DNA of 49,386 bases, taken from the sequence record SRR31156797_898; one strand, written 5' to 3'. Positions within the stretch are counted from its first letter, which is position 1, and every line of letters begins with the position of its first letter. A program made the position numbers and the translations under genes. Under the pieces are notes generated by a model. The model was not told where the DNA came from, made no database searches, and saw only the letters and a program-made list of their open reading frames with translations. This document shows, piece after piece, positions 27,916 through 47,719 of the stretch.

Positions 27916-28146
27916 CTACTTGTTGATGATTTTGACGTTGATGACATCACCGATTGAGTTTCTGATAACTTCAAGTCGGTAGTAACCAGCCTTCCTGAGA
28001 TACTTGCGTAAAGTGCCTCGATTGATTTCAAGATAGATAGCCGCTTGCGTCTGATTGCCGCGAACTGATGCCATAAATTCATTTAGGGTGACAACTTCAA
28101 TTGTCTTTGGCTTGATGATTCCTAAGTTGATTAAATCTGTGGTCAT
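27916..28146 (-). CDS. NinH/Fis-like HTH protein
   Basis: RGNQTQAAIYLEINRGTLRKY; start preceded by GAGGTAACGACCA. Confidence 0.7.
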   Translation of the reverse strand: MTTDLINLGIIKPKTIEVVTLNEFMASVRGNQTQAAIYLEINRGTLRKYLRKAGYYRLEVIRNSIGDVINVKIINK

Positions 28147-28841
28147 TGGTCGTTACCTCGATTAACTTGTTCTGATTGTTTAGGTCTATTGCCTAGCTGC
28201 GCAATTCGATTGAATATAGAACCATTGCGATACTTACTTGGGTCAGGAACGCCAGCTCGTTCTCTTGCGATATCTGTTGGCATCACTACCGACTTTGGAG
28301 GAAGCGCTGGAACATCCTGAGGAATATCACCAGCTGAAAATCGCTTAACCCATTTGTCGAAAACTTTCTTAAATGCCCGTTCATCATCACCAATTGCTCT
28401 GAGCTTAACGTTTGCATGTACAGCATCGGTAAATACGAGTTTTTCAAAGTGATTGCTTGGCTTAGCGTTCGCCATGAATCGCTCGAAGCAAGCAGAAAAA
28501 TCAAACCCGAGATTTCGACAAGCATCGATAAACTCTGAAAGCGTTGGAGGCCAGCCGTTAGCTGAATCAATCAATACTTTCGCCATTCCCTTTCGAATTT
28601 GATCAACAGTAAGAACACTAAGACCTTGCTCCCATGTCGCGGGTAGAGATTCTGACGACCAACGATTCAAGTAAGCCTCACGGAACTTGGTATTAACCCA
28701 ATCCGCTACCGTCAACTGGATTAATTTCCCGTTCGATCGGTGCGGAAGCATGTCCGTACTTGGCGAGCAACCTCTCGTTGTATGCGTCGATTGAATTTGG
28801 CTTGTAGCCTGATTCAGTAACTCTTGGTTGATTTTCTTCAT
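28143..28841 (-). CDS. Replication protein P-like
   Basis: WPPTLSEFIDACR motif; follows the initiator. Confidence 0.75.
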   Translation of the reverse strand: MKKINQELLNQATSQIQSTHTTRGCSPSTDMLPHRSNGKLIQLTVADWVNTKFREAYLNRWSSESLPATWEQGLSVLTVDQIRKGMAKVLIDSANGWPPTLSEFIDACRNLGFDFSACFERFMANAKPSNHFEKLVFTDAVHANVKLRAIGDDERAFKKVFDKWVKRFSAGDIPQDVPALPPKSVVMPTDIARERAGVPDPSKYRNGSIFNRIAQLGNRPKQSEQVNRGNDQ

Positions 28842-29517
28842 GTGGGTCGTTCCATCGCTCGTTATTCAGGTACGTTGTTGCATGCAGCTTGTCGAAGCCG
28901 AATTGCTTTCGCTTGATACGTTCAGAAACATCGCTAACCAGCATTTCGGTAAATTCACTCACGGTTAGGTTTTGTTTTTTCAAAGCGGCTTTGAATGATT
29001 TCAGCGCGCCCTGCTTGTTCGCTTTGGTTGGGTAGGATTTCCAAAAGGTTTCAAATTCAGGAAAATCCAAATCACTTTTTTGTTTATTTTTATTACTACC
29101 AATCAGTACTTGTTTATTATCAGTACTTATTAGTGTCGGCTCAGCCAGATCTGGGTTAGCCTGATCTGGGTTAGACGTATTTGGCTCATCCTTATCCGTG
29201 TTATCCGTATCTGGCTTATCCGTAATAGGGTTATCAAATACTGTGTAATCAACGGTTCCGTCAGAGTGTTTCTTGGTAGATATAAACCCTTTGGACTTCA
29301 GTTCTTTTAGAATGCTGTAGATACCATCCCTGCCCGTTTTCTTTGCTGTTCCAACAGTGACTTTTTCCAACTGACTAGGACTAATAGACCAGTTATCTGG
29401 TTTTGATAGGATGTAGGAAAGCATCCCCATAGCCTGAAATGACAACAGTTTGTCTTCATAAACAGAGTTGGAAATGACGCTATAATTGCGCTCTCTTTTT
29501 GCCCGTATAATGCTCAT
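28693..29517 (-). CDS. Replication initiator (O-like)
   Basis: N-terminal LSFQAMGMLSYILSKPDNW HTH; FETFWKSYP and HATTYLNNERW; internal iterons. Confidence 0.9.
   Translation of the reverse strand: MSIIRAKRERNYSVISNSVYEDKLLSFQAMGMLSYILSKPDNWSISPSQLEKVTVGTAKKTGRDGIYSILKELKSKGFISTKKHSDGTVDYTVFDNPITDKPDTDNTDKDEPNTSNPDQANPDLAEPTLISTDNKQVLIGSNKNKQKSDLDFPEFETFWKSYPTKANKQGALKSFKAALKKQNLTVSEFTEMLVSDVSERIKRKQFGFDKLHATTYLNNERWNDPHEENQPRVTESGYKPNSIDAYNERLLAKYGHASAPIEREINPVDGSGLG
29060..29240. repeat. Replication origin: iterons plus AT-rich tract
   Basis: gatctgggttag x2 and ttatccgt x3 within the initiator gene, next to an AT-rich stretch. Confidence 0.7.
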
Positions 29518-29537
29518 GGGTCGTTACCTTTTGTGGG

Positions 29538-30005
29538 CTATCTGGCTCTGTAAACTCTGATGGTCGCTAATTTGCTCGCGATAATCTTCGCAGCAGCCTC
29601 GATAGCAGCAGCCTTGATCGCCTTAGCCTCTTTGCTGTCGATCATTTGGTCATCTGCGAGAGCTTTTGATATTTCGACATTGACTTCACCTAGTGCCGCC
29701 ATTTCACCGATCTGAATTTCGCTGAGCTCTTCTTGGTCAAGTTCGAAGTCGCCAATAGGAATGAACAAGCCGCCGCGTAAACTTGCACGGTATTGTGCTA
29801 AAACGTAGGTTCCTGCATGCAGTTCCATCGCTTCTAAATCGTCATCATCAAAGAATCGGCAACCGTTACGTTCGTAAAGCTTGTTGTTGAAGGTGGTTTC
29901 AGACATACCAATAGCGCCAGATAAAGCACCGCGCCCACCTTTGGTGTGCTTGATGATCTCTTTAACCACTTCTTTCTTGGATTCAAAAATAGCTAACATA
30001 ATCAA
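29538..30005 (-). CDS. CII-like / YmfL-family regulator
   Basis: FNNKLYERNGCRFF motif; position after cro. Confidence 0.8.
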   Translation of the reverse strand: MIMLAIFESKKEVVKEIIKHTKGGRGALSGAIGMSETTFNNKLYERNGCRFFDDDDLEAMELHAGTYVLAQYRASLRGGLFIPIGDFELDQEELSEIQIGEMAALGEVNVEISKALADDQMIDSKEAKAIKAAAIEAAAKIIASKLATIRVYRAR

Positions 30006-30018
30006 TGATTCCTTGTAG

Positions 30019-30267
30019 TTACGCGGTTTTATCTAGTGAGTTAGTATTCAGCTCAGGCCAAATACTTAACCAACTGTCTGGTCTTAAATTTTTTCTAGTT
30101 ACAAGACCGTTTGAGTTTTTCTCTATAGCAACACAAAGCTCAGCGCCAATTTTTGATTGCTTACTAATAGCAACGCGAAGGCTCGCTAGCGTTGTTCCAC
30201 ATTTAGCTGCGAAGTCATTTTGTTGTTCTACAGACAACATATTTAAAAAAGCTCTTAGTTCATTCAT
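30019..30267 (-). CDS. cro: Cro-like repressor (YdaS-like)
   Basis: FAAKCGTTLASL..IEKNSNGLVTRKNLRPD..IWPEL; divergent from cI. Confidence 0.88.
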   Translation of the reverse strand: MNELRAFLNMLSVEQQNDFAAKCGTTLASLRVAISKQSKIGAELCVAIEKNSNGLVTRKNLRPDSWLSIWPELNTNSLDKTA

Positions 30268-30286
30268 AGGTACTCCTTTGGAATGA

Positions 30287-30357
30287 ACTATAACCCACAG
30301 GTAATATAAAATTCAATACCCACAGGGAATTTACCTACAGGTTAATAGTGATAAAAT
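30287..30357. promoter_or_regulatory. OR region: three 16-bp operators, PR (minus) and PRM (plus)
   Basis: ATAACCCACAGGTAAT 30290-30305, AATACCCACAGGGAAT 30315-30330, TTTACCTACAGGTTAA 30330-30345; PR TTGAAT-N18-TATAGT; PRM extended -10 TGaTAAAAT. Confidence 0.85.
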
Positions 30358-30363
30358 CTTTGT

Positions 30364-31044
30364 ATGGATATTTATGAAATTAGGCGTCAGCGCCTACTTA
30401 AGCTGAAAGACGAAAGGTGTAACGGTAAGATTGTTACGCTTGCAGAGAAAATCGACACATCTCAATCTTACGTGTCGAGGATGCTTTATTCCCCAGACAA
30501 AGTAGGAAAGAAAAATATATCTGATGTAATGGTTCAAAAAATTACTGATGCTTTTGGGCTAAACAAAGGCTGGCTAGATGGGATTGACCATGATGAAGGA
30601 TTGAATAACGTAACTAGGTTAGATATCCAGCCATCATACAAAGATAAATACCCAATTCTAGGGAAAGTATCAGCCGGTAGGTTCAAGGACGCAGTGCAAA
30701 CATTTGACTTAGAGTATGAGCAGAGCACCGTTAAATGCAGTAATGATTCATTCTGGCTTGTTGTAGACGGGCATTCAATGACAGCACCTCAAGGATCTGG
30801 AATCTCATTTTTAGAGGGTATGCTGATACTGGTTGATCCAGAACGCGAATACTGTCATGGAAATTTTGTCGTTGCTTACTGTGAAGATAAACATATGGCG
30901 ACATTTAAAAAAATCAGCATTGAACCGGAAGGAGTATTTTTGGTTCCTCTTAATCCAGATCCGACTTATAGACGCATAAACATGGCTGACGAGTACTGTG
31001 AGGTTGCAGGAGTAGTTGTCGATGCCAGGTGGAAGATGTTTTAA
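30364..31044 (+). CDS. cI: CI repressor (HTH + S24 peptidase)
   Basis: N-terminal HTH; VSAG cleavage site, VDGHSM Ser motif, ATFKK Lys motif. Confidence 0.95.
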   Translation: MDIYEIRRQRLLKLKDERCNGKIVTLAEKIDTSQSYVSRMLYSPDKVGKKNISDVMVQKITDAFGLNKGWLDGIDHDEGLNNVTRLDIQPSYKDKYPILGKVSAGRFKDAVQTFDLEYEQSTVKCSNDSFWLVVDGHSMTAPQGSGISFLEGMLILVDPEREYCHGNFVVAYCEDKHMATFKKISIEPEGVFLVPLNPDPTYRRINMADEYCEVAGVVVDARWKMF

Positions 31045-31047
31045 CTA

Positions 31048-31389
31048 ATGGGATGGAACTACGTGAAAATAAAGATGATTATTAGCGCTACATTACTTGT
31101 CTTTTCTGGTGAATTATTAGCTTCAGAGTCAGGTAATGATGACTACTGCTTTATGATCAATGATATGGCTGGTAAGATGATGGAGGCTAGGCAACTTGGC
31201 ATTCCATTAGCAGAAATGAAAAAGCCTTTAAATGCATTGAAAGGTGCAGAAAAAGATTTGTTTACTGATATTCTAATTTCTGCTTATGAAAAACCAAGAT
31301 TCAACGGTGAAGAGATAAGAAAAAGATACATAACAGAGCATCAAAACGATTGGTATATGAATTGTATAAAAGTTTACCAAAGTAAATGA
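31048..31389 (+). CDS. Putative exported protein co-transcribed with cI
   Basis: Signal-peptide-like N-terminus (..ISATLLVFSGELLA-S); two Cys; start uncertain. Confidence 0.7.
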   Translation: MGWNYVKIKMIISATLLVFSGELLASESGNDDYCFMINDMAGKMMEARQLGIPLAEMKKPLNALKGAEKDLFTDILISAYEKPRFNGEEIRKRYITEHQNDWYMNCIKVYQSK

Positions 31390-31425
31390 TGAAACTTATC
31401 TGTGACCTAATCATTGCGATATAAT

Positions 31426-31447
31426 AAGCCTCCCGAAGGAGGCTTTC
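31426..31447. terminator. Bidirectional terminator
   Basis: aagcctcc cgaa ggaggctt between convergent genes. Confidence 0.8.
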
Positions 31448-31450
31448 GAT

Positions 31451-32149
31451 TTATGCAACAGTAGCTTTAAGAATCCCGAAATCAATTAGCTTTTTCGTCA
31501 ACCACTGCTCACCCTTACCCGTAATTAGCGGCGTGTGGGAAATTCTTGTTTCCCCATTGGCTTCATAGCTCCCCTGTCTCACTTGGAAGTATCCGCGCTC
31601 AATAAACTCTTGGAATGGTAGGTTGTGACGCTCACCGCCAGCCATTAAGATCTTTATTTCTCTAAGTATCGAAAATATCTTGCGAGGTCCAAGACCTACA
31701 GATTTAGCAAAGTTCCCTAACTGAACGCCCTTATCTGCTGATGCTATGCGATCAGCAAATTCAGCCTTAGGTGCAGCTATGGCAAGTTGTCTTTGGGTTT
31801 CTTCGTTCTGTTTCGCAAGCTCAGCGGCAAGCAGTAAAGCTTCTGGAAGTGTTTGAGGGATTTTGAATTGATTGGCTTCTTCAAGTTCTTGCCATCGGTC
31901 TACGAGACGAGCCGTAAATTCTGGTGATAGTTGAGCAACAACAACGTAACTATCTCGCTTAGTAACATGGTAGATGGTTATTGGCTTTCCGCCTCCGGCG
32001 GTCGGTTCCACCGTTGGTGTAATCGAAATAACTAGGCTCGATGCCATTCTCTCCATTGATCGCTTAACGCTGTCATGACGAGAGTTGGTAAGCTCCGCAA
32101 TCTCGCGGCTGCTCATGGTTAGATTTTGGTCGTGTTTAATCATATTCAT
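31451..32149 (-). CDS. Antirepressor (Rha N-terminal + KilA-C/ANT C-terminal)
   Basis: LTMSSREIAELT, PEFTARLVDRWQELE, IPQTLPEALLLAA, APKAEFAD, ITGKGEQWL. Confidence 0.92.
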   Translation of the reverse strand: MNMIKHDQNLTMSSREIAELTNSRHDSVKRSMERMASSLVISITPTVEPTAGGGKPITIYHVTKRDSYVVVAQLSPEFTARLVDRWQELEEANQFKIPQTLPEALLLAAELAKQNEETQRQLAIAAPKAEFADRIASADKGVQLGNFAKSVGLGPRKIFSILREIKILMAGGERHNLPFQEFIERGYFQVRQGSYEANGETRISHTPLITGKGEQWLTKKLIDFGILKATVA

Positions 32150-32241
32150 GATTGTTTCCTTCTATGAAATATTAAAGAACGGTGCCCCTAACGCTTTTGG
32201 TCGGTATTACGCTTTGAAAGCGATCGATAAGGACAGGATCA

Positions 32242-32274
32242 ATATTAATTTCATAACACTGGTTATTCAACCAG
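32242..32274 (-). promoter_or_regulatory. Antirepressor promoter overlapped by a LexA box
   Basis: CTGGTTATTCAACCAG (CTG-N10-CAG) at 32259-32274 over minus-strand TTGAAT-N17-TAATAT. Confidence 0.7.
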
Positions 32275-32297
32275 TTTAGCGATCATTTATTAACCAC

Positions 32298-32420
32298 CAG
32301 AAACCAAAAAGCCCGCATAAGCGGGCTAATCGGGTGACGAACCGACCAAGGCAACGTCACGAAGGTAACAACCAATGAATATCATTCATTAGCTTGTGGG
32401 CCACGACCAAGCAACCCACG
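32298..32420 (-). ncRNA. Candidate sRNA-1 (three UUGGUYG motifs plus terminator)
   Basis: Hairpins with motif-bearing loops; minus-strand terminator agcccgc-ttat-gcgggct-tttt; -10-like TACTAT upstream; paralog at 34642-34790. Confidence 0.6.
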
Positions 32421-32479
32421 CAGGTATAGTAACTCAATGAATATCTTCGTTCCACAAATCCAATAATTTTTATGATACC

Positions 32480-32503
32480 TACCGTCCTAGTGGCGGTTTT
32501 TTA
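32480..32503 (+). terminator. Intrinsic terminator upstream of pL
   Basis: accgtc ctagt ggcggt followed by a T-tract. Confidence 0.7.
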
Positions 32504-32542
32504 TGCCTGAAAATTAACCCAGTAAATTTAAAATAAAAAAAT

Positions 32543-32586
32543 ATTACCTTGAGGTATTGACATAAAATATAACCCGCAGGTAATAT
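32543..32586 (+). promoter_or_regulatory. pL promoter with two OL operators
   Basis: TTGACA 32557-62, N18, TAATAT; operators ATTACCTTGAGGTATT 32543-58 and ATAACCCGCAGGTAAT 32569-84 match the OR sites. Confidence 0.85.
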
Positions 32587-32608
32587 CAACCACATCAACA
32601 CGAAACAC

Positions 32609-32621
32609 CGCTCTTTAACAA
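32609..32621 (+). promoter_or_regulatory. boxA antitermination site
   Basis: CGCTCTTTAACAA, the lambdoid/rrn boxA consensus, shortly after the pL start. Confidence 0.85.
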
Positions 32622-32639
32622 CTTGCACCATGAACGATT

Positions 32640-33717: not shown

Positions 33718-33719
33718 AT

Positions 33720-34641: not shown

Positions 34642-34790
34642 CAGAAACCAAAAACCCCGCATAAGCGGGGCAATCAGGGAGCGGGTAACGACCAAGAAAC
34701 ACGCTCCATGCTGCTTTCGCAGCGAGGTAACGACCAATGAACACTCACGTTCACCAGCCAGCAAGCCGCGACCAAGCGGCTTACTCATCG
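34642..34790 (-). ncRNA. Candidate sRNA-2 (three UUGGUCG motifs plus terminator)
   Basis: Same architecture and near-identical terminator tail as 32298-32420. Confidence 0.6.
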
Positions 34791-34808
34791 AAAGGATACA
34801 GTAAATGA
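34737..34808 (+). CDS. 23-aa leader ORF coupled to the next gene
   Basis: GAGGTAACGACCA-ATG start; MNTHVHQPASRDQAAYSSKGYSK*; stop overlaps ATG 34805. Confidence 0.45.
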   Translation: MNTHVHQPASRDQAAYSSKGYSK

Positions 34809-35191
34809 ATATTCTTAGTCTAGTTCCAGAAAATGAAGAATCCGCGCTTAACGCTTATATCGACAAAGGAATTGTCCGCATTAAGTCAAACCGAGAGTCT
34901 TGCGGTCTCACTATCACCAGCTTTGTGGACTGGATGTTTGAGCAGGATTTACCTCGTCGTATGGTTGTTGGCCTTGTTCGTGAAGTAATGGCAACACAGT
35001 TTGATCCTCAAATGAGTAGCCACAAACTTATTCCCCTTGAGAACTTCCAAGACAATTTTGGCGATCTTCTAAATCAGTTCATCGAAGAAAACAAAGTAAA
35101 AATAAAAGATGGATATGCAGCCGAAAAGAAGCAGCAATTCGAAAACGACCTAATCACTCAATTTGAGCAAATCCAACTATCAAATTACTGA
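34805..35191 (+). CDS. Hypothetical protein
   Basis: 128-aa ORF with AAGGA SD, upstream of bet. Confidence 0.7.
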   Translation: MNILSLVPENEESALNAYIDKGIVRIKSNRESCGLTITSFVDWMFEQDLPRRMVVGLVREVMATQFDPQMSSHKLIPLENFQDNFGDLLNQFIEENKVKIKDGYAAEKKQQFENDLITQFEQIQLSNY

Positions 35192-35202
35192 GGTAACGAC
35201 CA

Positions 35203-36033
35203 ATGAGTAACATTACATCATTCGAGGAGCGCCACCCCGCTGTATCAAAACGAGGGATTGATGAATCAACGTGGTCAGCGCTGAAGAATAGCGTTTATCC
35301 GGGCGCTAAAGAAGAATCCATCTTAATGGTTATCGACTACTGCCGCGCTCGTAACTTTGACCCTCTTCTAAAGCCTGTCCATATCGTTCCTATGAATGTT
35401 AAGAACTCGCAGACCAACAACAATGAATGGCGTGATGTTGTTATGCCTGGCATTGGTATGTACCGAATTCAAGCAGATAGAAGTGGTACATATGCAGGTT
35501 CAACAGAACCAGAATTTGGTCCACTTGTTTCTATGGATTTTAGGGGCGAAGGAAACCAAGTAGAAACCATCAATTTCCCTGAGTGGTGCAAAATCACTGT
35601 TTACAAAGTCGTTAACGGCAACCCAGTTGCTTTTTCTGCTAAGGAAATGTGGCTGGAAAACTACGCAACAGCTGGGCGAAACACTCAAATCCCAAATGCC
35701 ATGTGGAAAAAGCGGCAATATGCACAGCTGGCTAAATGTACCGAAGCACAAGCACTACGTAAGGCATGGCCTGAAATTGGTCAGCAAGCTACTGCTGAAG
35801 AAATGGAAGGGAAAGATTTGATCATTGAGCATGATGTATCACCAACCAAGTCTCTTCCAAATCAAGCAACTAACTACTTACAAGCTGACTTTGATAAGAA
35901 TTTCGATAAGTGGAAAGAGCTTATCGAGTCAGGTCGTAACACACCAGAACGCATCATTTCTATGGCTGAATCAAAAGGCAAGATGACAGACGAAATGAAA
36001 GCAAAAATTAAGAAGATTAATCAGGAGCAATGA
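35203..36033 (+). CDS. bet: Single-strand annealing recombinase (Bet/RecT family)
   Basis: DYCRARNFDPLLKPVHIVPM, YRIQADRSG, QLAKCTEAQALRKAWP. Confidence 0.92.
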   Translation: MSNITSFEERHPAVSKRGIDESTWSALKNSVYPGAKEESILMVIDYCRARNFDPLLKPVHIVPMNVKNSQTNNNEWRDVVMPGIGMYRIQADRSGTYAGSTEPEFGPLVSMDFRGEGNQVETINFPEWCKITVYKVVNGNPVAFSAKEMWLENYATAGRNTQIPNAMWKKRQYAQLAKCTEAQALRKAWPEIGQQATAEEMEGKDLIIEHDVSPTKSLPNQATNYLQADFDKNFDKWKELIESGRNTPERIISMAESKGKMTDEMKAKIKKINQEQ

Positions 36034-37801: not shown

Positions 37802-37813
37802 TAGGTAACGACC

Positions 37814-38068
37814 ATGATTCAAGGTGAATATTACTTACACGAAAACGGAAGCTTGATTTACAAGCCTCACGGTGGCGTTGAAGCAAATAGCACATTCGTT
37901 AAACGTGTGTGGGATGCAAGTCTGATCGGCAGAACTCCTCAAGAGTTCGTTAACTGGCTAAAAGAAGCATTCAATGCCGGTGCAAAGCGAAGTGAAGTTG
38001 AACGATGCGCCAATGCTAACAACCTTTCTCAATATGTTATTGATTGGGAAGAGCAAGTATTTAATTAA
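37814..38068 (+). CDS. Hypothetical protein
   Basis: Start preceded by AGGTAACGACC. Confidence 0.75.
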   Translation: MIQGEYYLHENGSLIYKPHGGVEANSTFVKRVWDASLIGRTPQEFVNWLKEAFNAGAKRSEVERCANANNLSQYVIDWEEQVFN

Positions 38069-38079
38069 GGTAACGACCA

Positions 38080-38643
38080 ATGAAAACAATCACATTCTAC
38101 GATACAGAAACAACCGGACTACCAAACTGGAAGGTTCCTAGCGACGACGTAAGCCAGCCGCATATCGTTCAGATAGGAGCGATCGTCTGCAATGCCGAAA
38201 CCCGTGAAATCATCAAAGAAATTGACGTAATGATTAAGCCTGATGGTTGGGAAATACCTGATGAAGTAGCAGCTATTCACGGTATTACTACAGCAATTGC
38301 ACTTGAGAAAGGCATACCTGAAACAGAAGCAATCAAAATGCTGCTTGATGAATGTTCCGGTGATCGCGTTGCTCACAACCGTACTTTCGACCAGCGCATT
38401 ATTCGCATTGGACTCAAGCGTTTCGGTTTCACCAATGAGTTAATGGATTCATGGGCTGAGAAAGATAACCATCACGACACCATGTTACTGGCTAAGCCAA
38501 TCATGAAGCTGGGGAAAAATCCGAAGCTAGAAGAGGCTTATGAGCATTTCACTAATAAGAAGTTAGAGAATTCTCATTCTGCTATATCTGATGCTCGTGC
38601 TTGCATGGAATTGTATTGGGCCATTCAGGATATGGAAGCCTAA
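38080..38643 (+). CDS. DEDDh 3'-5' exonuclease (DnaQ-like)
   Basis: YDTETTG, VAHNRTFD, HSAISD. Confidence 0.92.
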   Translation: MKTITFYDTETTGLPNWKVPSDDVSQPHIVQIGAIVCNAETREIIKEIDVMIKPDGWEIPDEVAAIHGITTAIALEKGIPETEAIKMLLDECSGDRVAHNRTFDQRIIRIGLKRFGFTNELMDSWAEKDNHHDTMLLAKPIMKLGKNPKLEEAYEHFTNKKLENSHSAISDARACMELYWAIQDMEA

Positions 38644-38645
38644 TT

Positions 38646-38864
38646 ATGAGTGATGAAGACATTATCACTAACTTGACTCGAAAGCTTGAGCAGGCAGAAG
38701 CGGATAAACAAGCTGCAATCGAATTGCACATTACCGCTTTTGCTAAAGAAATCTGGAGTGAACAGCTCAAGCATTACAAGTCGCAAAAAGTTATGCCTCT
38801 GACTATGGCTAATCAATACATCTTGAAAGTGAGTGGTAACCACCATGGACAAAAAGAAGATTAA
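38646..38864 (+). CDS. Hypothetical protein
   Basis: Start reassigned to MSDEDII just after the upstream stop. Confidence 0.55.
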   Translation: MSDEDIITNLTRKLEQAEADKQAAIELHITAFAKEIWSEQLKHYKSQKVMPLTMANQYILKVSGNHHGQKED

Positions 38865-39077: not shown

Positions 39078-39090
39078 GAAGGTAACGACC

Positions 39091-39324
39091 ATGAAAAACA
39101 AACTTTCTGATTTAAATAATCATTTGTTTGCTCAGCTTGAGCGACTTTGTGAAGAAGATTTAGTAGAAGATGAATCGAAACTAAAGCTAGAGCTGGAGCG
39201 AACAAAGGGTGTGAAATCCATTGCTCAGGAAATTATATCAAATGGTCGTTTAGCATTAGACGCTCAAACTGAACTTGGTGGTCGCATGGGAGGTAATAAG
39301 CCTGAAATGCTAGAGGTGAAGTAA
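39091..39324 (+). CDS. Conserved phage protein preceding HNH
   Basis: MKNKLSDLNNHLFAQLERL; GGTAACGACC-ATG start. Confidence 0.8.
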   Translation: MKNKLSDLNNHLFAQLERLCEEDLVEDESKLKLELERTKGVKSIAQEIISNGRLALDAQTELGGRMGGNKPEMLEVK

Positions 39325-40094: not shown

Positions 40095-40110
40095 ATAGGT
40101 AACGACCAAA

Positions 40111-41613
40111 ATGCTAAGACCAAATGAAATTGTTGTAGATAACTTCGCGGGTGGTGGCGGTGCATCAACTGGAATGGAGTTGGGCTTAAGCCGTCATGTT
40201 GATATTGCTATCAACCACGATCCAGACGCAATTGACATGCACAAGATGAATCATCCTGAGACGAAGCATTATTGTGAATCTGTATGGGATGTTGATCCGG
40301 TTAAAGCATGCGCTGGACGCCCTGTCGGATTAGCTTGGTTTTCTCCAGATTGTAAGCACTTTTCAAAAGCTAAAGGCAATCGACCTGTTGATAAAAATAT
40401 TCGCGGATTAGCATGGGTTGCTATACGTTGGGCTGCTCTTGTACCTGTTCGTGTTTTTATGTTGGAAAATGTCGAAGAGTTTCTTACATGGGGACCAGTG
40501 GTAGATACCGGAGATGGGAAATTCAAACCGCGCCCTGATCGCAAGGGTGAAACGTTTGATGCGTTCGTGAAAGTTCTTACTACTGGGTTAGAACCGAATC
40601 ACCCTGCTTGGAATGAAATCAAAGAAGCTCTTGGTGATGATTTCCCTTATGACAAGTTGGTCAAAGGGTTAGGTTATGACATTGACTACCGAGTGCTTCG
40701 CGCCTGTGATTACGGTGCACCAACTATTCGTAAACGTTTCTTCTTAGTCGCTCGTAATGACAAACAGCCAATCGCATGGCCAGAGCCTACTCATGGCGAA
40801 GGATTACTTCCTTATGTCACCGCGGCAGACATCATCGATTGGTCAATTCCGGTTAAATCTATCTTTGGGCGCAAGAAGCCATTGGTAGAAAACACCATGA
40901 AGCGAATAGCTAAAGGGTTAGAGAAATTTGTATTAAACAACGACAACCCTTTCATTGCTCCCAGTGAATGTACGGTTCCGTTTATTACTGAACATGCAAA
41001 TGCATCTAACCAGCGAAACATGCCAGCTGACGAACCATTGAGAACAATATGCGCTCAAGTGAAAGGCGGTCATTTTGCTCTTGTTACTGCATTTATCGCT
41101 CGTCATTTCACAGATGGTCCATCGGCATGCATAAACAAGCCACTACCAACAGTAACGACGGTTGATCACAATGCGTTAGTTACTAGCCATATGGTTAAAC
41201 TCCGTGGAACGAATATCGGTCATGGTACTGATGAACCTGTACACACCATTTCAGCCGGTGGCTTACATATTGGTGAAGTAAGAGCATTCCTATTGAAGTA
41301 CTACGGAACGAGCTTTGCTGAAGGTTGTGATACGCCAATAGGTACGGTGACAACCAAAGACCGATTTGGGCTTGTTACTGTGTACGGTGAACACTATCAA
41401 ATCGTAGATATTGGTATGCGAATGCTAGAGCCCCACGAACTGTTTGCAGGTCAAGGTTTTCCGTCTGACTACAAAATATCTCATCACAGCAGTGGTAAGA
41501 AACGATCTAAATCAAGCCAAGTTGCTCGATGCGGCAATGCTGTTTGTCCTCCTGTCGCACAAGCATTAGTTGAAGCAAACATTCAATCAGCACCAAAAAC
41601 AAAAGCGGCATAG
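40111..41613 (+). CDS. DNA cytosine-C5 methyltransferase
   Basis: FAGGGG, SPDCKHFS, ENV, RKRFF, GNAVCP motifs. Confidence 0.95.
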   Translation: MLRPNEIVVDNFAGGGGASTGMELGLSRHVDIAINHDPDAIDMHKMNHPETKHYCESVWDVDPVKACAGRPVGLAWFSPDCKHFSKAKGNRPVDKNIRGLAWVAIRWAALVPVRVFMLENVEEFLTWGPVVDTGDGKFKPRPDRKGETFDAFVKVLTTGLEPNHPAWNEIKEALGDDFPYDKLVKGLGYDIDYRVLRACDYGAPTIRKRFFLVARNDKQPIAWPEPTHGEGLLPYVTAADIIDWSIPVKSIFGRKKPLVENTMKRIAKGLEKFVLNNDNPFIAPSECTVPFITEHANASNQRNMPADEPLRTICAQVKGGHFALVTAFIARHFTDGPSACINKPLPTVTTVDHNALVTSHMVKLRGTNIGHGTDEPVHTISAGGLHIGEVRAFLLKYYGTSFAEGCDTPIGTVTTKDRFGLVTVYGEHYQIVDIGMRMLEPHELFAGQGFPSDYKISHHSSGKKRSKSSQVARCGNAVCPPVAQALVEANIQSAPKTKAA

Positions 41614-41623
41614 GAAACGACCA

Positions 41624-42274
41624 ATGAACCAATACGCTCGATCGCTGCTAGAAGTGCAGCAACAACCTTCCCATAAGCTGAAAGAAATTGGCGACCAATG
41701 GGAAACACCAAAGGCTCTCGCGTGGGGCCTTTTTAGTACCTTCAATTCACGCCTTGGCTCTATCGTTCTCGATATCTTTGCGGACGATTGCAATGCCCTG
41801 CTTCCGAATTACTACACCGCCAAAGATAACGCTCTGGTGCAAAACCTAGCAGCTGATTTGAAGAAGATTGGTGGAAGTGCTGCATTTGCGAATCCTCCCT
41901 ACTCTCGCCCATTCATTGACGATGAGCAGTACATCACAGGTATGACTCACATCATTGATTGGTGCCTAAAGCAGCGCGAACAAGGCGCAAAAATCATGCT
42001 TCTGATTAAAGCTGCTACTTCCGAAAAATGGTTTACGGACAAAGCCGACTTTATTCAGTACATAGAAGGTCGAATCGGGTTTGAGGCTCCTAGTTGGTAT
42101 AAGCCGGCAACGGATAGAGACAAACCAAGTTCTGCAGGCTTTGCATCTGCTGTGATGATTTTCGACAGTGAATGGCGATGGGAACGACGACCAGTAGAGC
42201 GATTGAGTCGTGATGACTTACTTGCTCAAGGCAACGTTATTTTGCAAATGATAGATAAGCAGGTGACGGCATGA
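41624..42274 (+). CDS. Phage N6-adenine methyltransferase (T1 Dam-like family)
   Basis: DQWETP, LDIFA, NPPYS, GRIGF; start reassigned by the GGAAACGACCA-ATG motif. Confidence 0.9.
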   Translation: MNQYARSLLEVQQQPSHKLKEIGDQWETPKALAWGLFSTFNSRLGSIVLDIFADDCNALLPNYYTAKDNALVQNLAADLKKIGGSAAFANPPYSRPFIDDEQYITGMTHIIDWCLKQREQGAKIMLLIKAATSEKWFTDKADFIQYIEGRIGFEAPSWYKPATDRDKPSSAGFASAVMIFDSEWRWERRPVERLSRDDLLAQGNVILQMIDKQVTA

Positions 42275-43103
42275 GCGATAAACTATTTACACCAGTATTA
42301 CGCTATCACGGTGGTAAGTTTCGACTAGCTAAATGGATAACTGGATTCTTCCCAGAACATCATTGCTATGTTGAACCTTTCTCCGGTGCAGCATCTGTTC
42401 TCCTTCAAAAAGAACGTTCTCATGGCGAAGTGTATAACGACCTTGATAGCGACATCGTAAATCTTTTCAAGGTGCTCCGTGACGAACAGCAATCTAAACG
42501 TTTGATAGAGCTCCTTCACCTAACTCCATACAGTAGAGAAGAGTTCTACCTGGCATATGAAAAAACCGAAGATGCTATCGAGAAAGCAAGAAGGACTGTT
42601 GTTCGGTCAGCTATGGGGTTTGGTTCCGGTGCCGCTACTTTTCACAAAACTGGTTTCCGTTGTGAAGCTAAGCGCCAGTACAACACAAGCGCTCATGTTT
42701 GGGAAAAATACCCAGATGTCATCCAGTACGTATGCCAACGTTTGAAAGGTGTGAACATCGAGAACCGACCTGCTATCGAGTGCATTAACTATCACGACTC
42801 TGAGCAAACCCTATCTATGTTGATCCGCCTTACGTCCCAGACTCACGAGACAGCCGATACGCTGGGTCAATTTACCAGCACGAAATGACCGAACAGGATC
42901 ATGAATCATTATTGAAATCGATTCTTGAGCTGAAAGGTATGGTCATCATTTCCGGTTATGACTCCGACTTGTATAACAACTATCTGGCCAGTTGGAGAAA
43001 AGAAGAAAAGAGCGCTCGTATTTCTGCTGGTCGTGGAACTGGCAAACGTATCGAGTGTTTATGGATTTCACCAAGTTGCGAACGTGAAACGGAGGCAGCA
43101 TGA
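42271..43103 (+). pseudogene. D12-class adenine methyltransferase with a 1-bp frameshift
   Basis: LRYHGGK and YVEPFSGAAS in the first ORF; YVDPPY at 42816-42833 is in the frame of ORF 42885..43103. Confidence 0.85.
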
Positions 43104-43780
43104 AAGCAGTACCTATGATCTTCAATACTGAGATGGTTCAAGCTCTGCTTGATGGGCGCAAAACTGTTACTCGCAGACCAGTGAATGAAGAATATTGCGA
43201 ATACATAAGAATTACTGGTTCAAGTGATGAAGCGTGCGAGAACCTAGAGTTCCTTGGTCTTATGTATGATCAATGGAAAGGCGATAACGATAAAATATGT
43301 GGTCCTGAGTACTTGGTCTATTGCACCGAGTATCCAGAAGATGGAGTTATCCCTATTGGACAAGGTCCAGCTCGTAAAGGCGATCTTATCTATGTCCGTG
43401 AAACGTTCAGACTATATAGCAATACTGATGAATGCGGATGTTCAGACCATTGCAGTTGCCCTCCGACAGGAACTCCGCTTTATTTCGCTACACATAATGA
43501 TGGAGAAAGTAAGTGGACTCCATCAATTCATATGCCACGTTCTGCAAGCCGGTTAACTCTGAAAGTCACTGATGTGCGTATCGAGAGAGTTAAAGATATT
43601 ACTCACGATCAAGTTAGGGCTGAAGGTTTTAACGATTGGACCGGATTTGCATTTACTTGGTCATCTATTTATCTGAAGCAAGGTCTTGGTTGGGATGATA
43701 ACCCTTACGTCTGGGTAATCGAGTTCGAAGTTATACATAAGAACGTTGATGAAGTTCTTCGTGAAATGGAGGCTGTATGA
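43100..43780 (+). CDS. ASCH/PUA-like phage protein
   Basis: PMIFNTEMVQALLDGRKTVTRR, VRETF, WTPSIHMPRSASR, NPYVWVIEF. Confidence 0.8.
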   Translation: MKAVPMIFNTEMVQALLDGRKTVTRRPVNEEYCEYIRITGSSDEACENLEFLGLMYDQWKGDNDKICGPEYLVYCTEYPEDGVIPIGQGPARKGDLIYVRETFRLYSNTDECGCSDHCSCPPTGTPLYFATHNDGESKWTPSIHMPRSASRLTLKVTDVRIERVKDITHDQVRAEGFNDWTGFAFTWSSIYLKQGLGWDDNPYVWVIEFEVIHKNVDEVLREMEAV

Positions 43781-44115
43781 GCAACACAGACCAAAAGCTG
43801 CGAGAACTCGCCAAACGGCATGCTGAAATATCATCAGAACTTTCTATTAATAACGATCAGAGAAGGAAGGAATTAGCCTACTGCAAAGGTGTCGAAAGCG
43901 ATGATGGTTATTACGAAACTTGTTACGGCATGGTTTACGACATGATGAAAGAAAGCATAGAGCAGCGAGAAGGAATCAGCTTTGATGAAATGCTTTCTAA
44001 TTACGGTTGCCGCCACTGCAATTCCGCTCGAATCCTAAAACACCACATCGGCAAGCTCAAACAAGAGCGCGGTCGCATCCATTCGGCAATTACTCAAATA
44101 GGTAAGACACTATGA
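43777..44115 (+). CDS. Hypothetical protein
   Basis: ATGA overlap; CxxC. Confidence 0.7.
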   Translation: MSNTDQKLRELAKRHAEISSELSINNDQRRKELAYCKGVESDDGYYETCYGMVYDMMKESIEQREGISFDEMLSNYGCRHCNSARILKHHIGKLKQERGRIHSAITQIGKTL

Positions 44116-44456
44116 ATGACCTAGAAAGAAAATTAAAAGCTTCTGCGGTTATGGAGTTTGTAGGCATGATCCGAGGTGCGTACGGCTCAGGCTTCATTGA
44201 TAACCATCCAACTAATTACGACATTTATCGCTCAGCTCAAACGCATGTTAAAGACCGTTACGGCGTAGAAACCGAGAACTGGGATGACGAACTAGCGAAG
44301 GAAAGCCGTGACGATAGCTTTGAAAATTCTGTTCAACAAATCAAGCAAGAGTTTCTAAATTCATGCTCAGTGTTAATGCGTCCGCATATCGAAGGTGTTT
44401 TCGCTGTAATCGAATCTCGCATAAAAAATAACGAACCAATATTGTCGGAGCAGTAA
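44112..44456 (+). CDS. Hypothetical protein
   Basis: ATGA overlap in the operon. Confidence 0.7.
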   Translation: MNDLERKLKASAVMEFVGMIRGAYGSGFIDNHPTNYDIYRSAQTHVKDRYGVETENWDDELAKESRDDSFENSVQQIKQEFLNSCSVLMRPHIEGVFAVIESRIKNNEPILSEQ

Positions 44457-44458
44457 TT

Positions 44459-44794
44459 ATGGCAACAGAACAAAAGCAACCACTAGCCGACATGCGCGGC
44501 TACAAGTCCCTTCATGAGTATGCGGTGATGCTAGAACGAGAAGTAAATCTCTTAAAAACTAAGCGCGATGAACAGCGTAGTTTCATGGAAGACATGGCTA
44601 ACGCAGCCGCTGAAAACGGGTACCAAGAGCATGCTAATACTATTCATGAAGTAATTAACCATCTAACTGATAACGGTTATCTGGATTGCGGAGATGAAGA
44701 AATTAAGCCTATGCAAGCAGTAAGTGAAGAGGCCGTTGGTTGGCTATTCGATAATCATCCAGAAATTTATGCGGGGTTCTATGAGCGAATGTAA
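44459..44794 (+). CDS. Hypothetical protein
   Basis: GGAG SD; operon packing. Confidence 0.7.
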   Translation: MATEQKQPLADMRGYKSLHEYAVMLEREVNLLKTKRDEQRSFMEDMANAAAENGYQEHANTIHEVINHLTDNGYLDCGDEEIKPMQAVSEEAVGWLFDNHPEIYAGFYERM

Positions 44795-45104
44795 CCCATA
44801 CAACACTATTGGTTATATGACTTGGATTGTTGAAAGTCCAAACAATGACCTTCCTTTTAACCCCAAACTTATTGCTGACGGAAAAGAAGTAAAAATTGTA
44901 GCTGCATCTGCGTACCACGAAAATCGAGTTAGCAAACGGCTATCTCATCTTCTAGCCAAGATATTATGGGATCATGATGATGCAATTGATGCCGAATACC
45001 TTAATAAAATCGGTTTTTCACACGAAGATGCATCTCAGTTATCTATGCAAATAGATGGACTAGAAAATATCAATGTTCCTATTGGGTGGGAAGATGACGA
45101 CTAA
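44781..45104 (+). CDS. Hypothetical protein
   Basis: Start reassigned to MSECNP. Confidence 0.6.
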   Translation: MSECNPYNTIGYMTWIVESPNNDLPFNPKLIADGKEVKIVAASAYHENRVSKRLSHLLAKILWDHDDAIDAEYLNKIGFSHEDASQLSMQIDGLENINVPIGWEDDD

Positions 45105-45270
45105 GCCAACCCACAGACCAAAAGGAAGTATGTGCGCTACTTGCAAAGGTCTTAACTCTCAATTCAAGCACGAATGCCCTTCCCCATCAGAATTCAAAAC
45201 CATGCATCAAATAGGAAAAGACAGCGACGGCGTGATAGTTGTTCGCTGTTCCAATTTTGAGCGCGTTTAA
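45094..45270 (+). CDS. Small Cys-rich hypothetical protein
   Basis: HRPKGSMCATC..C..VRCS. Confidence 0.6.
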   Translation: MTTKPTHRPKGSMCATCKGLNSQFKHECPSPSEFKTMHQIGKDSDGVIVVRCSNFERV

Positions 45271-45286
45271 TTAAAAGGTAATTGTT

Positions 45287-45961
45287 ATGAAAAGAAATCG
45301 ATTCTATAAAACATCAACCCATGGAGGAGTTGGAAGTAACGTTTCCTTTCATGGGATTAATGGTTCTGGATATGTCACAGATATCGATAAAGCCCATATT
45401 TATTCATTAGAAGAAGCTCAAAGTGAAGTAGATAAAGGCTGGATGCGTAATTATCCAGAGCAAGAATTGTTTTTGAGCGCGGATCATGTTGATGAATTGT
45501 CAGTGTGGAAGGTTGACTGTCAGTATGTTGATAAAACTTATCCAGAAATAAAAGATCCAAATAATGAATATGTGGCTTATAGAAAAGGTTGTTGGGATGG
45601 TAATGACTTAGGTTTCGCTTCCATATTGGCACATAACTACGATTATTCACAAGCTCGTATATTCACAGAAAAAGAAGTAAACAGTACTAATTTTGATGGA
45701 TGGGTTGTTGTGCCAAAATTCCACACTGATGAAATCGCAAGGCGCACATTTCAAAACAGAAATATTAACCGACGCAAAATGATAAGTTCTGCTGGAATAG
45801 TCGGTATTAGAAAAAAGAGAGAAAGTCAGAGTTCTGGCAAAACAAGATGGAATTGTCCGACATGTGGAAAGATAGTTTGGCAATATAACCCCCATGATTT
45901 TATGTCATGCTCTGATACAGAATGTAAAAGTTATGACGGATATTTGGCTGCATCCCTATAA
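45287..45961 (+). CDS. Hypothetical protein with C-terminal Zn-ribbon
   Basis: CPTCGK..CSDTEC; followed by a terminator. Confidence 0.75.
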   Translation: MKRNRFYKTSTHGGVGSNVSFHGINGSGYVTDIDKAHIYSLEEAQSEVDKGWMRNYPEQELFLSADHVDELSVWKVDCQYVDKTYPEIKDPNNEYVAYRKGCWDGNDLGFASILAHNYDYSQARIFTEKEVNSTNFDGWVVVPKFHTDEIARRTFQNRNINRRKMISSAGIVGIRKKRESQSSGKTRWNCPTCGKIVWQYNPHDFMSCSDTECKSYDGYLAASL

Positions 45962-45991
45962 GCACCATAAGTTATCCATTTAATTCTAATG

Positions 45992-46018
45992 AAAGCTCAT
46001 CACTAGATGGGCTTTTTT
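45992..46018 (+). terminator. Intrinsic terminator
   Basis: aaagctcatc acta gatgggcttt ttt. Confidence 0.8.
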
Positions 46019-46042
46019 AATACCTAAAGTAAGGTAACGACC

Positions 46043-46573
46043 ATGACCACAATGTATTTCAAATCAACTTCCGAAGAGCCAGCGATAGCTATCAAAGCTT
46101 ATCAGGACTCAATCAAGCACTACTCAAGCCAGTTCAATCCTCTTGAAAAGGAGTTCAACGCAACTGCAATTTTCTCATATGACGTCCATGGTATGCGTTT
46201 CTATGACCTTGCGTTCAATGATTATCAGAATTTACCTGATAAAGACCTTTGGACAAAACCAGATCCTAAATACAAAAACGCATGCCGCATCCGATCTAGC
46301 GTTCGTGGCAAAGAAAATATGGCGCGATTGAATGAGCTTAAACAGCGCTACGAATCACTATTGCCAAAAGACATCGAGAAGCCTTGCCGGCACGAATTTT
46401 TTGATTCTATCGGTGTTAGCTGGGGAGATTTAATCTTCTGCGGCCTAGATTTCTTTGTTCACAACGAAGAGGTCTATTTGGCAACAAGCATGAACCTTAC
46501 AAAAAACGTTGTTGAAATTACGGGTAGTGCGTTTGACGCTGCCAAAAAAGCACATAACCAGAAAAGCGAGTAA
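46043..46573 (+). CDS. Hypothetical protein
   Basis: AGGTAACGACC-ATG start; 176 aa. Confidence 0.75.
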   Translation: MTTMYFKSTSEEPAIAIKAYQDSIKHYSSQFNPLEKEFNATAIFSYDVHGMRFYDLAFNDYQNLPDKDLWTKPDPKYKNACRIRSSVRGKENMARLNELKQRYESLLPKDIEKPCRHEFFDSIGVSWGDLIFCGLDFFVHNEEVYLATSMNLTKNVVEITGSAFDAAKKAHNQKSE

Positions 46574-46579
46574 CGACCA

Positions 46580-47719
46580 ATGTTTGCAAAAAATATGATC
46601 ATTTATCGCGTTAACCGTGACGTCGATTTCAATACTGAAAAGCTAGAACAGCAGCTTGAAGAATTTAAACTCACCCCATGTGGCTCACAGGACAAACAAA
46701 AATTTGGCTGGGTATCTGCATTGCCAAAAGGTGAAATGTTTACCCATTTGTCAGGTGGTCACATCCTGATCCGTTCTTGTAAACAGGAAAAACTATTACC
46801 AGCTGCTTGTATCAATAAACTCGTCAAAGAGAAAGTTGACTACATGGAAGCGCAAGAAGGGCGACCTCTCAAGAAAGCAGAAAAAGACGATATCAGAGAC
46901 GATATTGTTATGGATAAGCTGCCAACCGCTTTTATCAAAGATACTTTTACCAACGTATTTATCTTCCCTGCTGATGGTCTAATTGTTGTTGATACTTCAA
47001 CGCACAAGAAAGCTGAAGACACACTTGCCCTGCTTCGTAAATCAATGGGTAGTCTTCCTTGCATTCCTCTTATTCCGCAAATCGCAGTCGAAACAACATT
47101 AACCGAATGGGTTAAAACTGGTGACGTTCCTAGCGGTTATGAAATTGGTAATGCTGCTGATATGAAGTCAATTCTCGATGATGGCGGTACAGTCAAGCTC
47201 AAGAATAACGAGCTAACTTCTGATGCTGTCCACCAGCACATTGAAGAAAACAAGATGGTTATCGCGCTTGAGTTAAGTTGGCAAGATCGCATTAGTTTTG
47301 TGTTGAAAGAGAACATGCAGTTATCTCGCGTTAACTTCGGCGATGTAATTACCGATCAAAACGAAGACATACCGCGAGAAGATGTTCACGCTCGTATGGA
47401 TGCTGATTTCGCTTTGGCTGCTGGTGAAATGCTTGCTCTTATCAAGTCTCTAATCAATGTTCTTGGTGGCCTTCCTTCACTAGATGAAGAAGCAGAAACC
47501 TCTATGACAAAACTTGAACAGCGATGTGAAGATCTATTGGAAGATGCGATTGCGTTTGTTAAAGAAACTCGACGCGCTTCAATATCAGCACTGCAACGAA
47601 AGTTCAAGATTGGATACAACCATGCAGCAAGAGTCATGGAAAGAATGGAAGAAATGAACATTGTTTCTAAACCGGCACACAATGGCAACCGTGAAGTATT
47701 AGCCCCTCCTATCGCCTAG
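46580..47719 (+). CDS. rdgC: RdgC fused to a C-terminal FtsK-gamma domain
   Basis: MFAKNMIIYR, PCGSQD..FGW, EKLLP, AEDTLALLRKSMGSLP; C-terminal ASISALQRKFKIGYNHAARVME..REVL. Confidence 0.92.
   Translation: MFAKNMIIYRVNRDVDFNTEKLEQQLEEFKLTPCGSQDKQKFGWVSALPKGEMFTHLSGGHILIRSCKQEKLLPAACINKLVKEKVDYMEAQEGRPLKKAEKDDIRDDIVMDKLPTAFIKDTFTNVFIFPADGLIVVDTSTHKKAEDTLALLRKSMGSLPCIPLIPQIAVETTLTEWVKTGDVPSGYEIGNAADMKSILDDGGTVKLKNNELTSDAVHQHIEENKMVIALELSWQDRISFVLKENMQLSRVNFGDVITDQNEDIPREDVHARMDADFALAAGEMLALIKSLINVLGGLPSLDEEAETSMTKLEQRCEDLLEDAIAFVKETRRASISALQRKFKIGYNHAARVMERMEEMNIVSKPAHNGNREVLAPPIA

Follow-up and report, generated by a model that had tools for sequence, protein, structure and literature searches.

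A repeated start-site tag and complementary small RNA candidates suggest antisense control of early genes in a Vibrio-type prophage

The DNA stretch SRR31156797_898 (49,386 nucleotides (nt); the whole stretch is hereafter called the window) is the genome of a temperate phage (49.4 kb, 43% GC), a Vibrio-type prophage. Here we describe a 16-base block, GAGGTAACGACC(A)ATG with the core GTAACGACC, which recurs as a tag at the translation starts of its early genes, together with two paralogous small RNA gene candidates on the minus strand, at ~34786-34646 (sRNA-2) and 32420-32303 (sRNA-1). Both candidates end in intrinsic terminators, and each presents two or three complements of the tag, one of them in a single-stranded segment and the rest in hairpin loops. 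Stems of these RNAs covary among related phages, and the RNA genes co-occur with the tag. From these features we infer that the RNAs are transcribed and that they repress by pairing, as well as the timing and sign of their effect; on balance, c4-like antisense RNAs probably repress a tagged early regulon. An earlier note on this DNA had postulated an early translational regulon with a shared trans-acting reader, a proposal that the two candidate RNAs, with their exact tag complement, support at the level of sequence.

A 16-base tag at early gene starts

Late genes occupy the minus strand of the window from 125 to ~28000. A cro-like gene (30267-30019) and a cI-like gene (30364-31044) form a divergent pair; the early-right operon on the minus strand contains a cII-like gene and the genes for the replication initiator, the helicase loader and a NinH-like protein, while the long early-left operon, on the plus strand, begins at 34737 and extends to the integrase gene (47969).

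The core GTAACGACC is the commonest 9-mer in the window. With up to one mismatch it has 21 matches on both strands, compared with 5.37 ± 2.13 in 100 dinucleotide shuffles, none of which reached 21. All 11 exact copies lie within 28148-46578, and ten of them are located 0-3 nt 5' of an ATG, which reproduces the positions and spacing reported in the earlier note. The distance is 1 nt for the genes starting at 28146(-), 29517(-), 34737, 35203, 38080 and 46580, 0 nt for those at 37814, 39091 and 46043, and 3 nt for that at 40111. The one-mismatch variants described previously at 38845 (GTAACCACC) and 41624 (GAAACGACC) are real, and a third start-linked variant at 28841(-) (GGAACGACC-CAC-ATG), which had been overlooked, raises the number of tagged early genes from the estimated 12 or so to 13. 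Also missed were the eleventh exact copy, at 34685, which is followed by no gene and is the complement of the sRNA-2 loop seed, and a variant copy at 32365 ahead of a 5-codon open reading frame (ORF). These two copies, and the tiny ORFs associated with them, are explained by the RNAs described below, because they are plus-strand images of RNA seeds.

The tagged genes encode the replication initiator (29517(-), phrog_270), a RecT-family protein (35203, previously labelled bet, from which it differs in family), an RNase_T/DnaQ-like exonuclease (38080), a C5 methylase (40111), a Dam-type methylase (41624) and an RdgC plus FtsK-gamma protein (46580), among others. In agreement with the earlier observation, no tag copy precedes the starts of late genes, cI (30364) or int (47969), and two one-mismatch matches in the late region (6138+ and 15254-) are situated away from gene starts. 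The antirepressor gene 32149-31451(-), of the ANT/Rha type, also lacks a tag. In the early-left operon, 10 of the 11 blocks of overlapping or abutting genes have a tag at their head, the exception being the block at 45287, and the untagged genes of this operon mostly overlap or abut the preceding gene. Three copies had been said to follow terminators directly. This was confirmed with a terminator tool for 39053-39071(+); the other two cases are less clear. At 37780-37797 a GGAGC-TTCG-GCTCC hairpin with a T-run can be read by eye, whereas the tool reports it for the minus strand alone, and the hairpin before 46034 is imperfect.

Conservation was analyzed across 90 distinct contexts, all taken from loci that carry two or more copies. 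The start codon lies within 3 nt of the tag in 79 of the 90 (A-ATG in 44, ATG in 22). Conservation extends over (G)AG-GTAACGACC-A-ATG only, with nothing conserved 5' of -3, and this extent is the same as that of the single-stranded RNA seed. Pairing with 16S rRNA is limited to GAGGT; the spacer segment pairs no better than chance (221 of 300 shuffles pair as well), and extended spacer pairing was rejected on these grounds. Pairing of the tag with the phage tRNA-Lys was likewise dropped, with just 6 nt complementary by eye.

The tag is shared by related phages. Exact copies number 7 in the close relative G001 and 9 in G002, and a uniform count in 14 related records gave 3-13 copies each, compared with 0-2 for a reversed control, in line with the scan that the earlier note had suggested; of 102 exact copies in total, 91 are start-linked (not de-duplicated). 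A 14-mer scan of IMG/VR returned at least 116 stretches, mostly single chance matches; the multi-copy loci among the matches listed have 42-54% GC and carry the block ahead of unrelated genes. A 17-mer scan with one genome per species gave 77 stretches, about the chance expectation. Six of these contain at least two copies of the 9-mer, the top four in Enterovibrio sp. and Vibrio albus and the other two, with two copies each, in uncultured proteobacterial genome bins; Grimontia marina, Photobacterium sp. and an uncultured Vibrio have one copy per stretch.

In five whole Vibrionaceae genomes the 10-mer was not enriched over its reversed control (in G007, 19 copies vs 31 reversed). In G007, 13 of the 19 copies fall in one 17-kb prophage stretch, and in G008, 8 of 18 fall within 14 kb; the divergent orientation is as seen in the window. 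Since the 10-mer is unenriched in the host genomes and its copies cluster in prophage stretches, the block belongs to early regions of Vibrionaceae prophages and not to host genes. Use of the motif by the host was rejected, there being no enrichment outside the prophage clusters of these five genomes. Thus, the motif is not equally common before host genes or before the late genes of the window, the outcome that would have spoken against the original proposal.

Several further observations concern the wider distribution of start-linked repeats. Among the fragments L063, L042 and L102, with 54% GC, far above that of the window, there is a run of seven tags on one strand of a fragment; the genes behind these tags are small ones, one for an AAA ATPase and one of 283 aa. 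L137 and L138 have just 2-3 starts of the GGCAACGACC type, which arrived with methylase genes. L140, a tag-less IMG/VR contig with an RdgC relative, contains a different intergenic repeat, the palindrome TTGGTCTCAGACCAA, with at least 8 copies shortly 5' of gene starts (e.g., 1135-1160, 2260-2285 and 3920-3945). L137, L138 and L140 were considered as a sister lineage with an altered tag and rejected; none of them carries the RNA module.

Two RNA candidates complementary to the tag

The two RNAs share a layout in which a hairpin with the loop CUUGGUCG is followed by a single-stranded seed, a second hairpin, a CCGAU-like linker and a terminator. In sRNA-2, the 5' hairpin with loop CUUGGUCG precedes the single-stranded segment CAUUGGUCGUUACCUC, a GAAA-loop hairpin, the hairpin GGAGCG/CGCUCC with loop UUCUUGGUCGUUACC and the terminator. 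The corresponding parts of sRNA-1 are a hairpin with loop CUUGGUCGUGG, the single-stranded CAUUGGUUGUUACCUUC, the hairpin GUGACG/CGUCAC with loop CCUUGGUCGGUU and the terminator. The single-stranded seed, CAUUGGU(C/U)GUUACCU(C/U), is the exact complement of GAGGUAACGACCAAUG, with one G-U pair in sRNA-1, and the second hairpin loop contains UUGGUCG(U/G)U in both. The terminator tool identified two minus-strand intrinsic terminators, at 34671-34654 and 32327-32310. The selected gene set contains no minus-strand protein gene between 34737 and 49195 that these terminators could serve. sRNA-2 is fully complementary to the early-left leader, and sRNA-1 lies outside this leader, just upstream of the antirepressor gene 32149-31451 and in the same direction.

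A promoter for sRNA-2 is suggested by a -35/-10 pair of the form TAGAC(T/G)-17/18-TAT(C/T)CT in the window lineage, which is kept in G002 despite differing encoded residues (by eye). In G004, G005, G007, L225 and L227, a TTATCA-16-TAAAAT, TATGAT or TACAAT pair occupies the same place, lying across the start codon of the first early-left gene and directed away from that gene; G008 and G006 have looser pairs there, TTGATC-16-TATGAT and TGGTCA-16-TACAAT, respectively (by eye).

Both loci fold better than their shuffles (z of -5.0 for sRNA-2 and -4.1 for sRNA-1), and their minus-strand fold energies were matched by none of the 271 windows taken from the early region as controls. In all 10 loci compared, which come from different phages, folding is more stable for the RNA strand than for its complement, with a difference of 5.5-17.8 kcal/mol; the RNA strand forms 5-9 G-U pairs and the complement 0-5. 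A strand asymmetry as large was found in 7 of the 271 control windows. Moreover, across eleven RNA loci, 31 of 39 anti-tag cores are found in loops whose closing stem has 5 bp or more, involving 29 distinct stems; among complements of ordinary tags, the corresponding figure is 21 of 57. The stems vary, but the loop sequence is retained.

A covariance model (R1) built from four modules detected the RNA module at 14 loci spread over 13 records of related phages (E <= 0.0036), namely twice in the window and in G001, G002, G004-G008, L136, L139, L141, L225, L227 and L104. It found none in L137, L138 and L140, and these three have 0 exact tags. In the model-fitted alignment of 12 matches, all four modelled seed-hairpin pairs are changed on both sides. 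Cells changed on both sides number 12, compared with 5.2 ± 2.1 in shuffles (0 of 500 as high), and slid controls were lower. In whole genomes, all three R1 matches lie beside tag clusters, on the strand opposite to the nearby tags. Finally, when 69 gene starts were ranked by predicted duplex energy with the two RNAs, the 13 tagged starts took ranks 1-9, 11, 13, 16 and 19.

Rfam families did not account for these loci. A scan of the window at gathering thresholds returned tRNA only, and a scan of 32150-34800 at E<=1 found no C4; its minus-strand matches to isrB, rsmX and Trp leader, at E 0.14-0.86, are unconvincing.

Proposed mechanism of antisense control

Based on these data, we propose a plausible mechanism for the coordinated control of the early genes. 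GAGGTAACGACC(A)ATG would serve as an address tag within the translation initiation region of the head gene of each early block, the blocks addressed being those for replication, recombination, the exonuclease, the methylases and RdgC. Its GAGGT would be the Shine-Dalgarno (SD) element, and the fixed spacer CGACCAA together with the AUG would form the landing site of the phage-encoded antisense small RNAs. A paired RNA would mask the SD together with the spacer and the AUG and so keep 30S subunits from binding to any of the tagged mRNAs at the same time, and genes overlapping a tagged head gene would follow through translational coupling. If constitutive, the RNAs could silence leaky early expression in the lysogen as well as the early genes of incoming tag-bearing relatives. 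Upon induction, strong early-left transcription running head-on through the sRNA-2 promoter may relieve the block. More tentatively, and with somewhat less confidence than we place in the repression itself, we suggest that a family of temperate Vibrionaceae phages could run its early programme by an RNA address system, in which 16-nt tags and multi-seed antisense RNAs provide a second immunity that reaches heteroimmune relatives, and in which genes recombined in at tags come under control at once.

Several points weigh against antisense control of the tagged genes, or limit the evidence for it. The sense strand being A/C-rich, the RNA strand is rich in G and U, which alone favours its folding. 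A model-fitted alignment leans towards structure, which limits the covariation count, and RNAalifold, applied to a plain MAFFT alignment of ten RNA modules, recovered only the terminator and a trivial helix; it missed the seed hairpin because the stems are out of register in that alignment. The module of G007 scores 24 bits only and was missed in the genome-wide R1 search. The ranking by duplex energy is not independent of the definition of the tag, and background energies overlap those of the weaker tags, the untagged starts 27585 and 42271 reaching -25 and -24 kcal/mol. The weak promoter of the window lineage (8/12) was unreported by the promoter scan and was read by eye. L063, with its 7 tags, has no RNA module within its 14.8-kb fragment (rated 27% complete). 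The same tag occurs in every lineage found, with no changed tag to set against the seeds.

If the proposal holds, antisense immunity of the c4/sar kind extends from one gene to a regulon of ~13 starts, and the frozen SD-AUG spacer across phages of different base composition is explained. It would also tie regulation to mosaic evolution, the regulatory tag being an exchange junction, and it predicts RNA-based exclusion between prophages with a common tag. Being short and portable, the pair of tag and seed could serve as a compact multi-gene translational switch.

Mosaic junctions and alternative explanations

The alternative that survives best holds that the tag is only an efficient shared ribosome-binding cassette and recombination junction, and that the minus-strand RNAs, if made, act in cis on the early-left leader. 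Short-homology swaps, for example by the phage's own RecT/YqaJ pair, would then give newcomer genes a working start site. Supporting this idea, the homology shared with G001 and G002 ends precisely at tags (28143, 35207, 37816/37817, 39091, 40097 and 46570), and in G002 the upstream context and the tag are as in the window and are followed by a different recombinase gene. The cassette 39091-40094(+), which encodes a 77-aa phrog_2044 protein and an HNH_3 endonuclease, lies between two copies of the tag. G002 lacks this cassette, and there the context upstream of one copy is joined to that downstream of the other; the cassette has the appearance of a mobile element inserted at a tag. Moreover, upstream ORFs terminate within the tag in 34 of 94 contexts and in all three frames, with the stop abutting GG, as the TAA in GGTAAC, or as the TGA of ATGA. 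The full complementarity of sRNA-2 to the early-left leader also fits a cis-acting RNA. Ends of high-scoring segment pairs from 15 subject records fall within 12 nt of the 13 tagged starts in 22 of 184 cases vs 17 of 184 near 23 untagged starts; breakpoints are therefore enriched at untagged starts too, so that the pattern is partly one of general mosaic breakage at gene borders.

These results indicate that the 16-nt block also marks points where early genes were swapped, inserted or lost. As a full account of the tag, however, the junction explanation appears unlikely to us. It leaves unexplained that the anti-tag is kept in hairpin loops while the stems change, since a purely cis-acting antisense RNA needs no conserved loop sequence, and sRNA-1 still has three anti-tag stretches although it lies outside the early-left leader. 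The two roles are compatible, as the alternative denies only action in trans, and exchange at tags may be one reason for their uniformity. Lambdoid phages have short conserved boundary sequences between modules, and the tag resembles these in that identical short sequences at gene borders coincide with mosaic junctions; it differs in being a translation start region that is strand- and start-specific and has a complementary RNA.

A second alternative, which we judge very unlikely, is that a protein reads the tag, either through plus-strand nut-like or operator hairpins showing AACGACCAAG in their loops or as a RegA-like translational repressor. The sense core AACGACCAAG does occur in loops of plus-strand leader hairpins in many relatives, and a candidate is available in the conserved 128-aa first product of the early-left operon. 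This protein family is encoded directly downstream, is present in 10 of 12 tag-bearing sets vs 0 of 3 tag-less sets and has no known family (no Pfam or PHROG match above cut-off); single-protein scans identified relatives in three close loci and one distant locus. However, it is only on the minus strand that U-runs follow the hairpins, G-U pairing favours that strand in all 10 loci compared, and in L139 and L141 the plus-strand image of the single-stranded seed reads ATA for ATG with the minus-strand seed kept. The arrangement thus differs from lambda N/nut in that the functional strand, as judged by U-runs and G-U pairs, is opposite to the operon, and in that the downstream 128-aa protein is acidic, without an arginine-rich stretch (by eye) or a known family. 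Among the 20 early proteins scanned against Pfam there was no RNA-binding family, the T4 RegA-type repressor family included.

Least probable of all is a reading by the ribosome alone, in which a spacer rich in A and C and poor in G, set at a constant distance from GAGGT, just makes the optimal start site for these hosts and has spread by descent and selection: the 8-9 nt spacing falls in the working range of start sites and the start codon is within 3 nt of the tag in most contexts, but host copies outside prophages are at or below the reversed-control frequency, the late genes of these phages need high expression and are never tagged, the spacer has no extra 16S rRNA complementarity, and the complementary RNA genes stay unexplained.

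Relation to known phage systems

The tag is reminiscent of the start-associated sequences (SAS) of cluster K mycobacteriophages, named as its analogue in the earlier note. SAS is a short asymmetric repeat with an SD core, present in 11-19 copies (Pope et al. 2011, PMC3203893). Its consensus is the 13-bp GGGATAGGAGCCC with up to two deviations; copies lie a few nt 5' of start codons, mostly ATG, in the non-structural half of the genome only, ahead of various gene families, and they are absent from the host genome (PMC3203893). Parts of SAS are unable to pair with 16S rRNA, and the authors left open whether its reader is an RNA or a protein (PMC3203893). The analogy stands for position and distribution: the window likewise has many copies in a single orientation to genes, near starts, confined to non-structural genes and absent from the host. 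It fails for sequence and host, as the block here is GAGGTAACGACC(A)ATG and not GGGATAGGAGCCC and belongs to Vibrionaceae prophages, with a different host phylum and phage group. About half of the SAS copies are preceded by a 17-bp inverted repeat (ESAS), proposed to be the site of a DNA-binding protein (PMC3203893); the present tag lacks this repeat, nothing being conserved 5' of -3 in the 90 contexts. The passages of that paper drawn on here describe no complementary RNA for SAS, whereas the window has RNA candidates. Start-associated repeats have been a puzzle since the cluster K description, and the complementary antisense RNAs offer a concrete candidate reader. Four K1 phages have a single opposite-strand SAS copy that precedes no gene (PMC3203893), and this copy may merit re-examination in view of the RNAs in the window.

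The RNAs themselves recall the c4 antisense RNA of P1 and P7 (Citron and Schuster 1990, cited in PMC8198154; see also the review PMC12197685). In c4, the complementary stretches are thought to be in loops, and the RNA pairs around the ribosome-binding site and blocks translation; it is located upstream of the antirepressor gene, in the same direction, and provides a second immunity layer by controlling one operon, icd-ant (PMC8198154, PMC12197685). The candidates similarly display complements of the ribosome-binding region in loops, and sRNA-1 lies upstream of a same-strand antirepressor gene, a resemblance that is functional only. Unlike c4, with its single operon, the target here is carried by ~13 starts in two divergent operons, and the Rfam covariance models match no family, C4 included, at either RNA locus. 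The sar RNA of P22 and the OOP and aQ RNAs of lambda are small antisense RNAs from the immunity and early region of temperate phages; each represses a regulator through pairing and acts on the single gene it overlaps (PMC12197685). sRNA-2 resembles them in overlapping its nearest target in cis; in contrast to the RNAs of the window, they have neither repeated seeds nor a shared tag on distant genes as described there.

A phage small RNA that targets a shared tag on many genes is not named in the portions of the 2025 review used here (PMC12197685), nor in the literature searched, supplementary tables not being covered. With the same limit on supplementary tables, a text search for GGTAACGACC gave, among the matches listed, none on phage starts, and some were primers. 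The best reading of the arrangement, as far as sequence comparison allows, is therefore an antisense-RNA immunity newly extended to a tagged regulon.

Feature positions and further observations

Feature coordinates are collected in Table 1. The ORF 34737-34804 may not be a real gene.

Table 1 Tag copies, RNA candidates and associated features of the window
Feature	Position	Strand	Remark
Tag GAGGTAACGACCAATG, start of 76-aa NinH/Fis-HTH-like gene (27916-28146)	28144..28159	-	
Variant tag GGAACGACC-CAC-ATG, start of P-like helicase loader gene (28143-28841)	28839..28855	-	
Tag, start of replication initiator gene (28693-29517)	29515..29530	-	
Candidate sRNA-1, paralogue of sRNA-2	32303..32420	-	Terminator at 32327-32303
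Variant copy GTAACAACC, then 5-codon ORF	32365..32373	+	Complement of sRNA-1 single-stranded seed
Candidate sRNA-2	34646..34786	-	5' end inferred; terminator at 34671-34646
Exact copy no. 11, not a gene start	34685..34693	+	Complement of sRNA-2 loop seed
Tag, 22-codon ORF 34737-34804	34724..34739	+	Also template of sRNA-2 single-stranded seed
Putative sRNA-2 promoter, weak sigma-70-like, TAGACT-18-TATCCT (8/12)	34793..34822	-	Overlaps first codons of gene 34805
128-aa gene, first full-size gene of early-left operon	34805..35191	+	Start overlaps sRNA-2 promoter region
Tag, RecT-family recombinase gene	35190..35205	+	Stop TGA of upstream gene overlaps GAGG
Tag, 84-aa gene	37802..37816	+	Directly 3' of hairpin with T-run
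Tag, RNase_T/DnaQ-like exonuclease gene	38067..38082	+	
Variant tag GTAACCACC-ATG, 69-aa gene	38833..38847	+	
Tag, 77-aa gene (phrog_2044), head of cassette with HNH endonuclease gene (39324-40094)	39079..39093	+	After terminator 39053-39071
Tag with spacer AAA, C5 cytosine methylase gene	40096..40113	+	
Variant tag GAAACGACC-A-ATG, Dam-type methylase gene	41611..41626	+	Gene heads overlapping-gene run up to 45270
Tag, 176-aa gene (phrog_2314)	46031..46045	+	
Tag, RdgC/FtsK-gamma gene	46567..46582	+	

GenBank phage records contain no match to the leader 34600-35210 and none to the 128-aa protein; by megablast, the best match among them covers 7% of the early region and is a methylase.

Several genes have further features of note. 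If started at the variant tag 28841(-), the helicase-loader gene shares 149 nt (28693-28841) with the end of the replication initiator gene, read in another frame. The YqaJ-type exonuclease partner of RecT, encoded at 36030-37775(+), has 581 aa, and its C-terminus matches the T7 gp5.9 RecBCD-inhibitor family (residues 537-575, E 7e-12). The gene 46580-47719(+) encodes a phage RdgC homologue with an FtsK-gamma (KOPS-binding) domain fused on.

A near-consensus promoter, TTGACA-18-TAATAT, is located at 32557-32586(+) and is followed by ~1.1 kb without a convincing ORF up to the tRNA genes. The stretch 32557-33715(+) has 83-99% identity in G002 and no match in Rfam; it could be a long structured RNA or a leader of the early-left operon. 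Directly 3' of the tRNA-Lys(UUU) gene (33720-33791) lies a second tRNA-like gene (33798-33880(+)), in which the T arm and acceptor end are present and the D region is odd. On the tRNA-Sec model it reaches 31.5 bits (cut-off 47), and ARAGORN did not call it. In the relatives L136, L033 and L076, a further copy of the motif lies within a hairpin 3' of this second tRNA-like gene.

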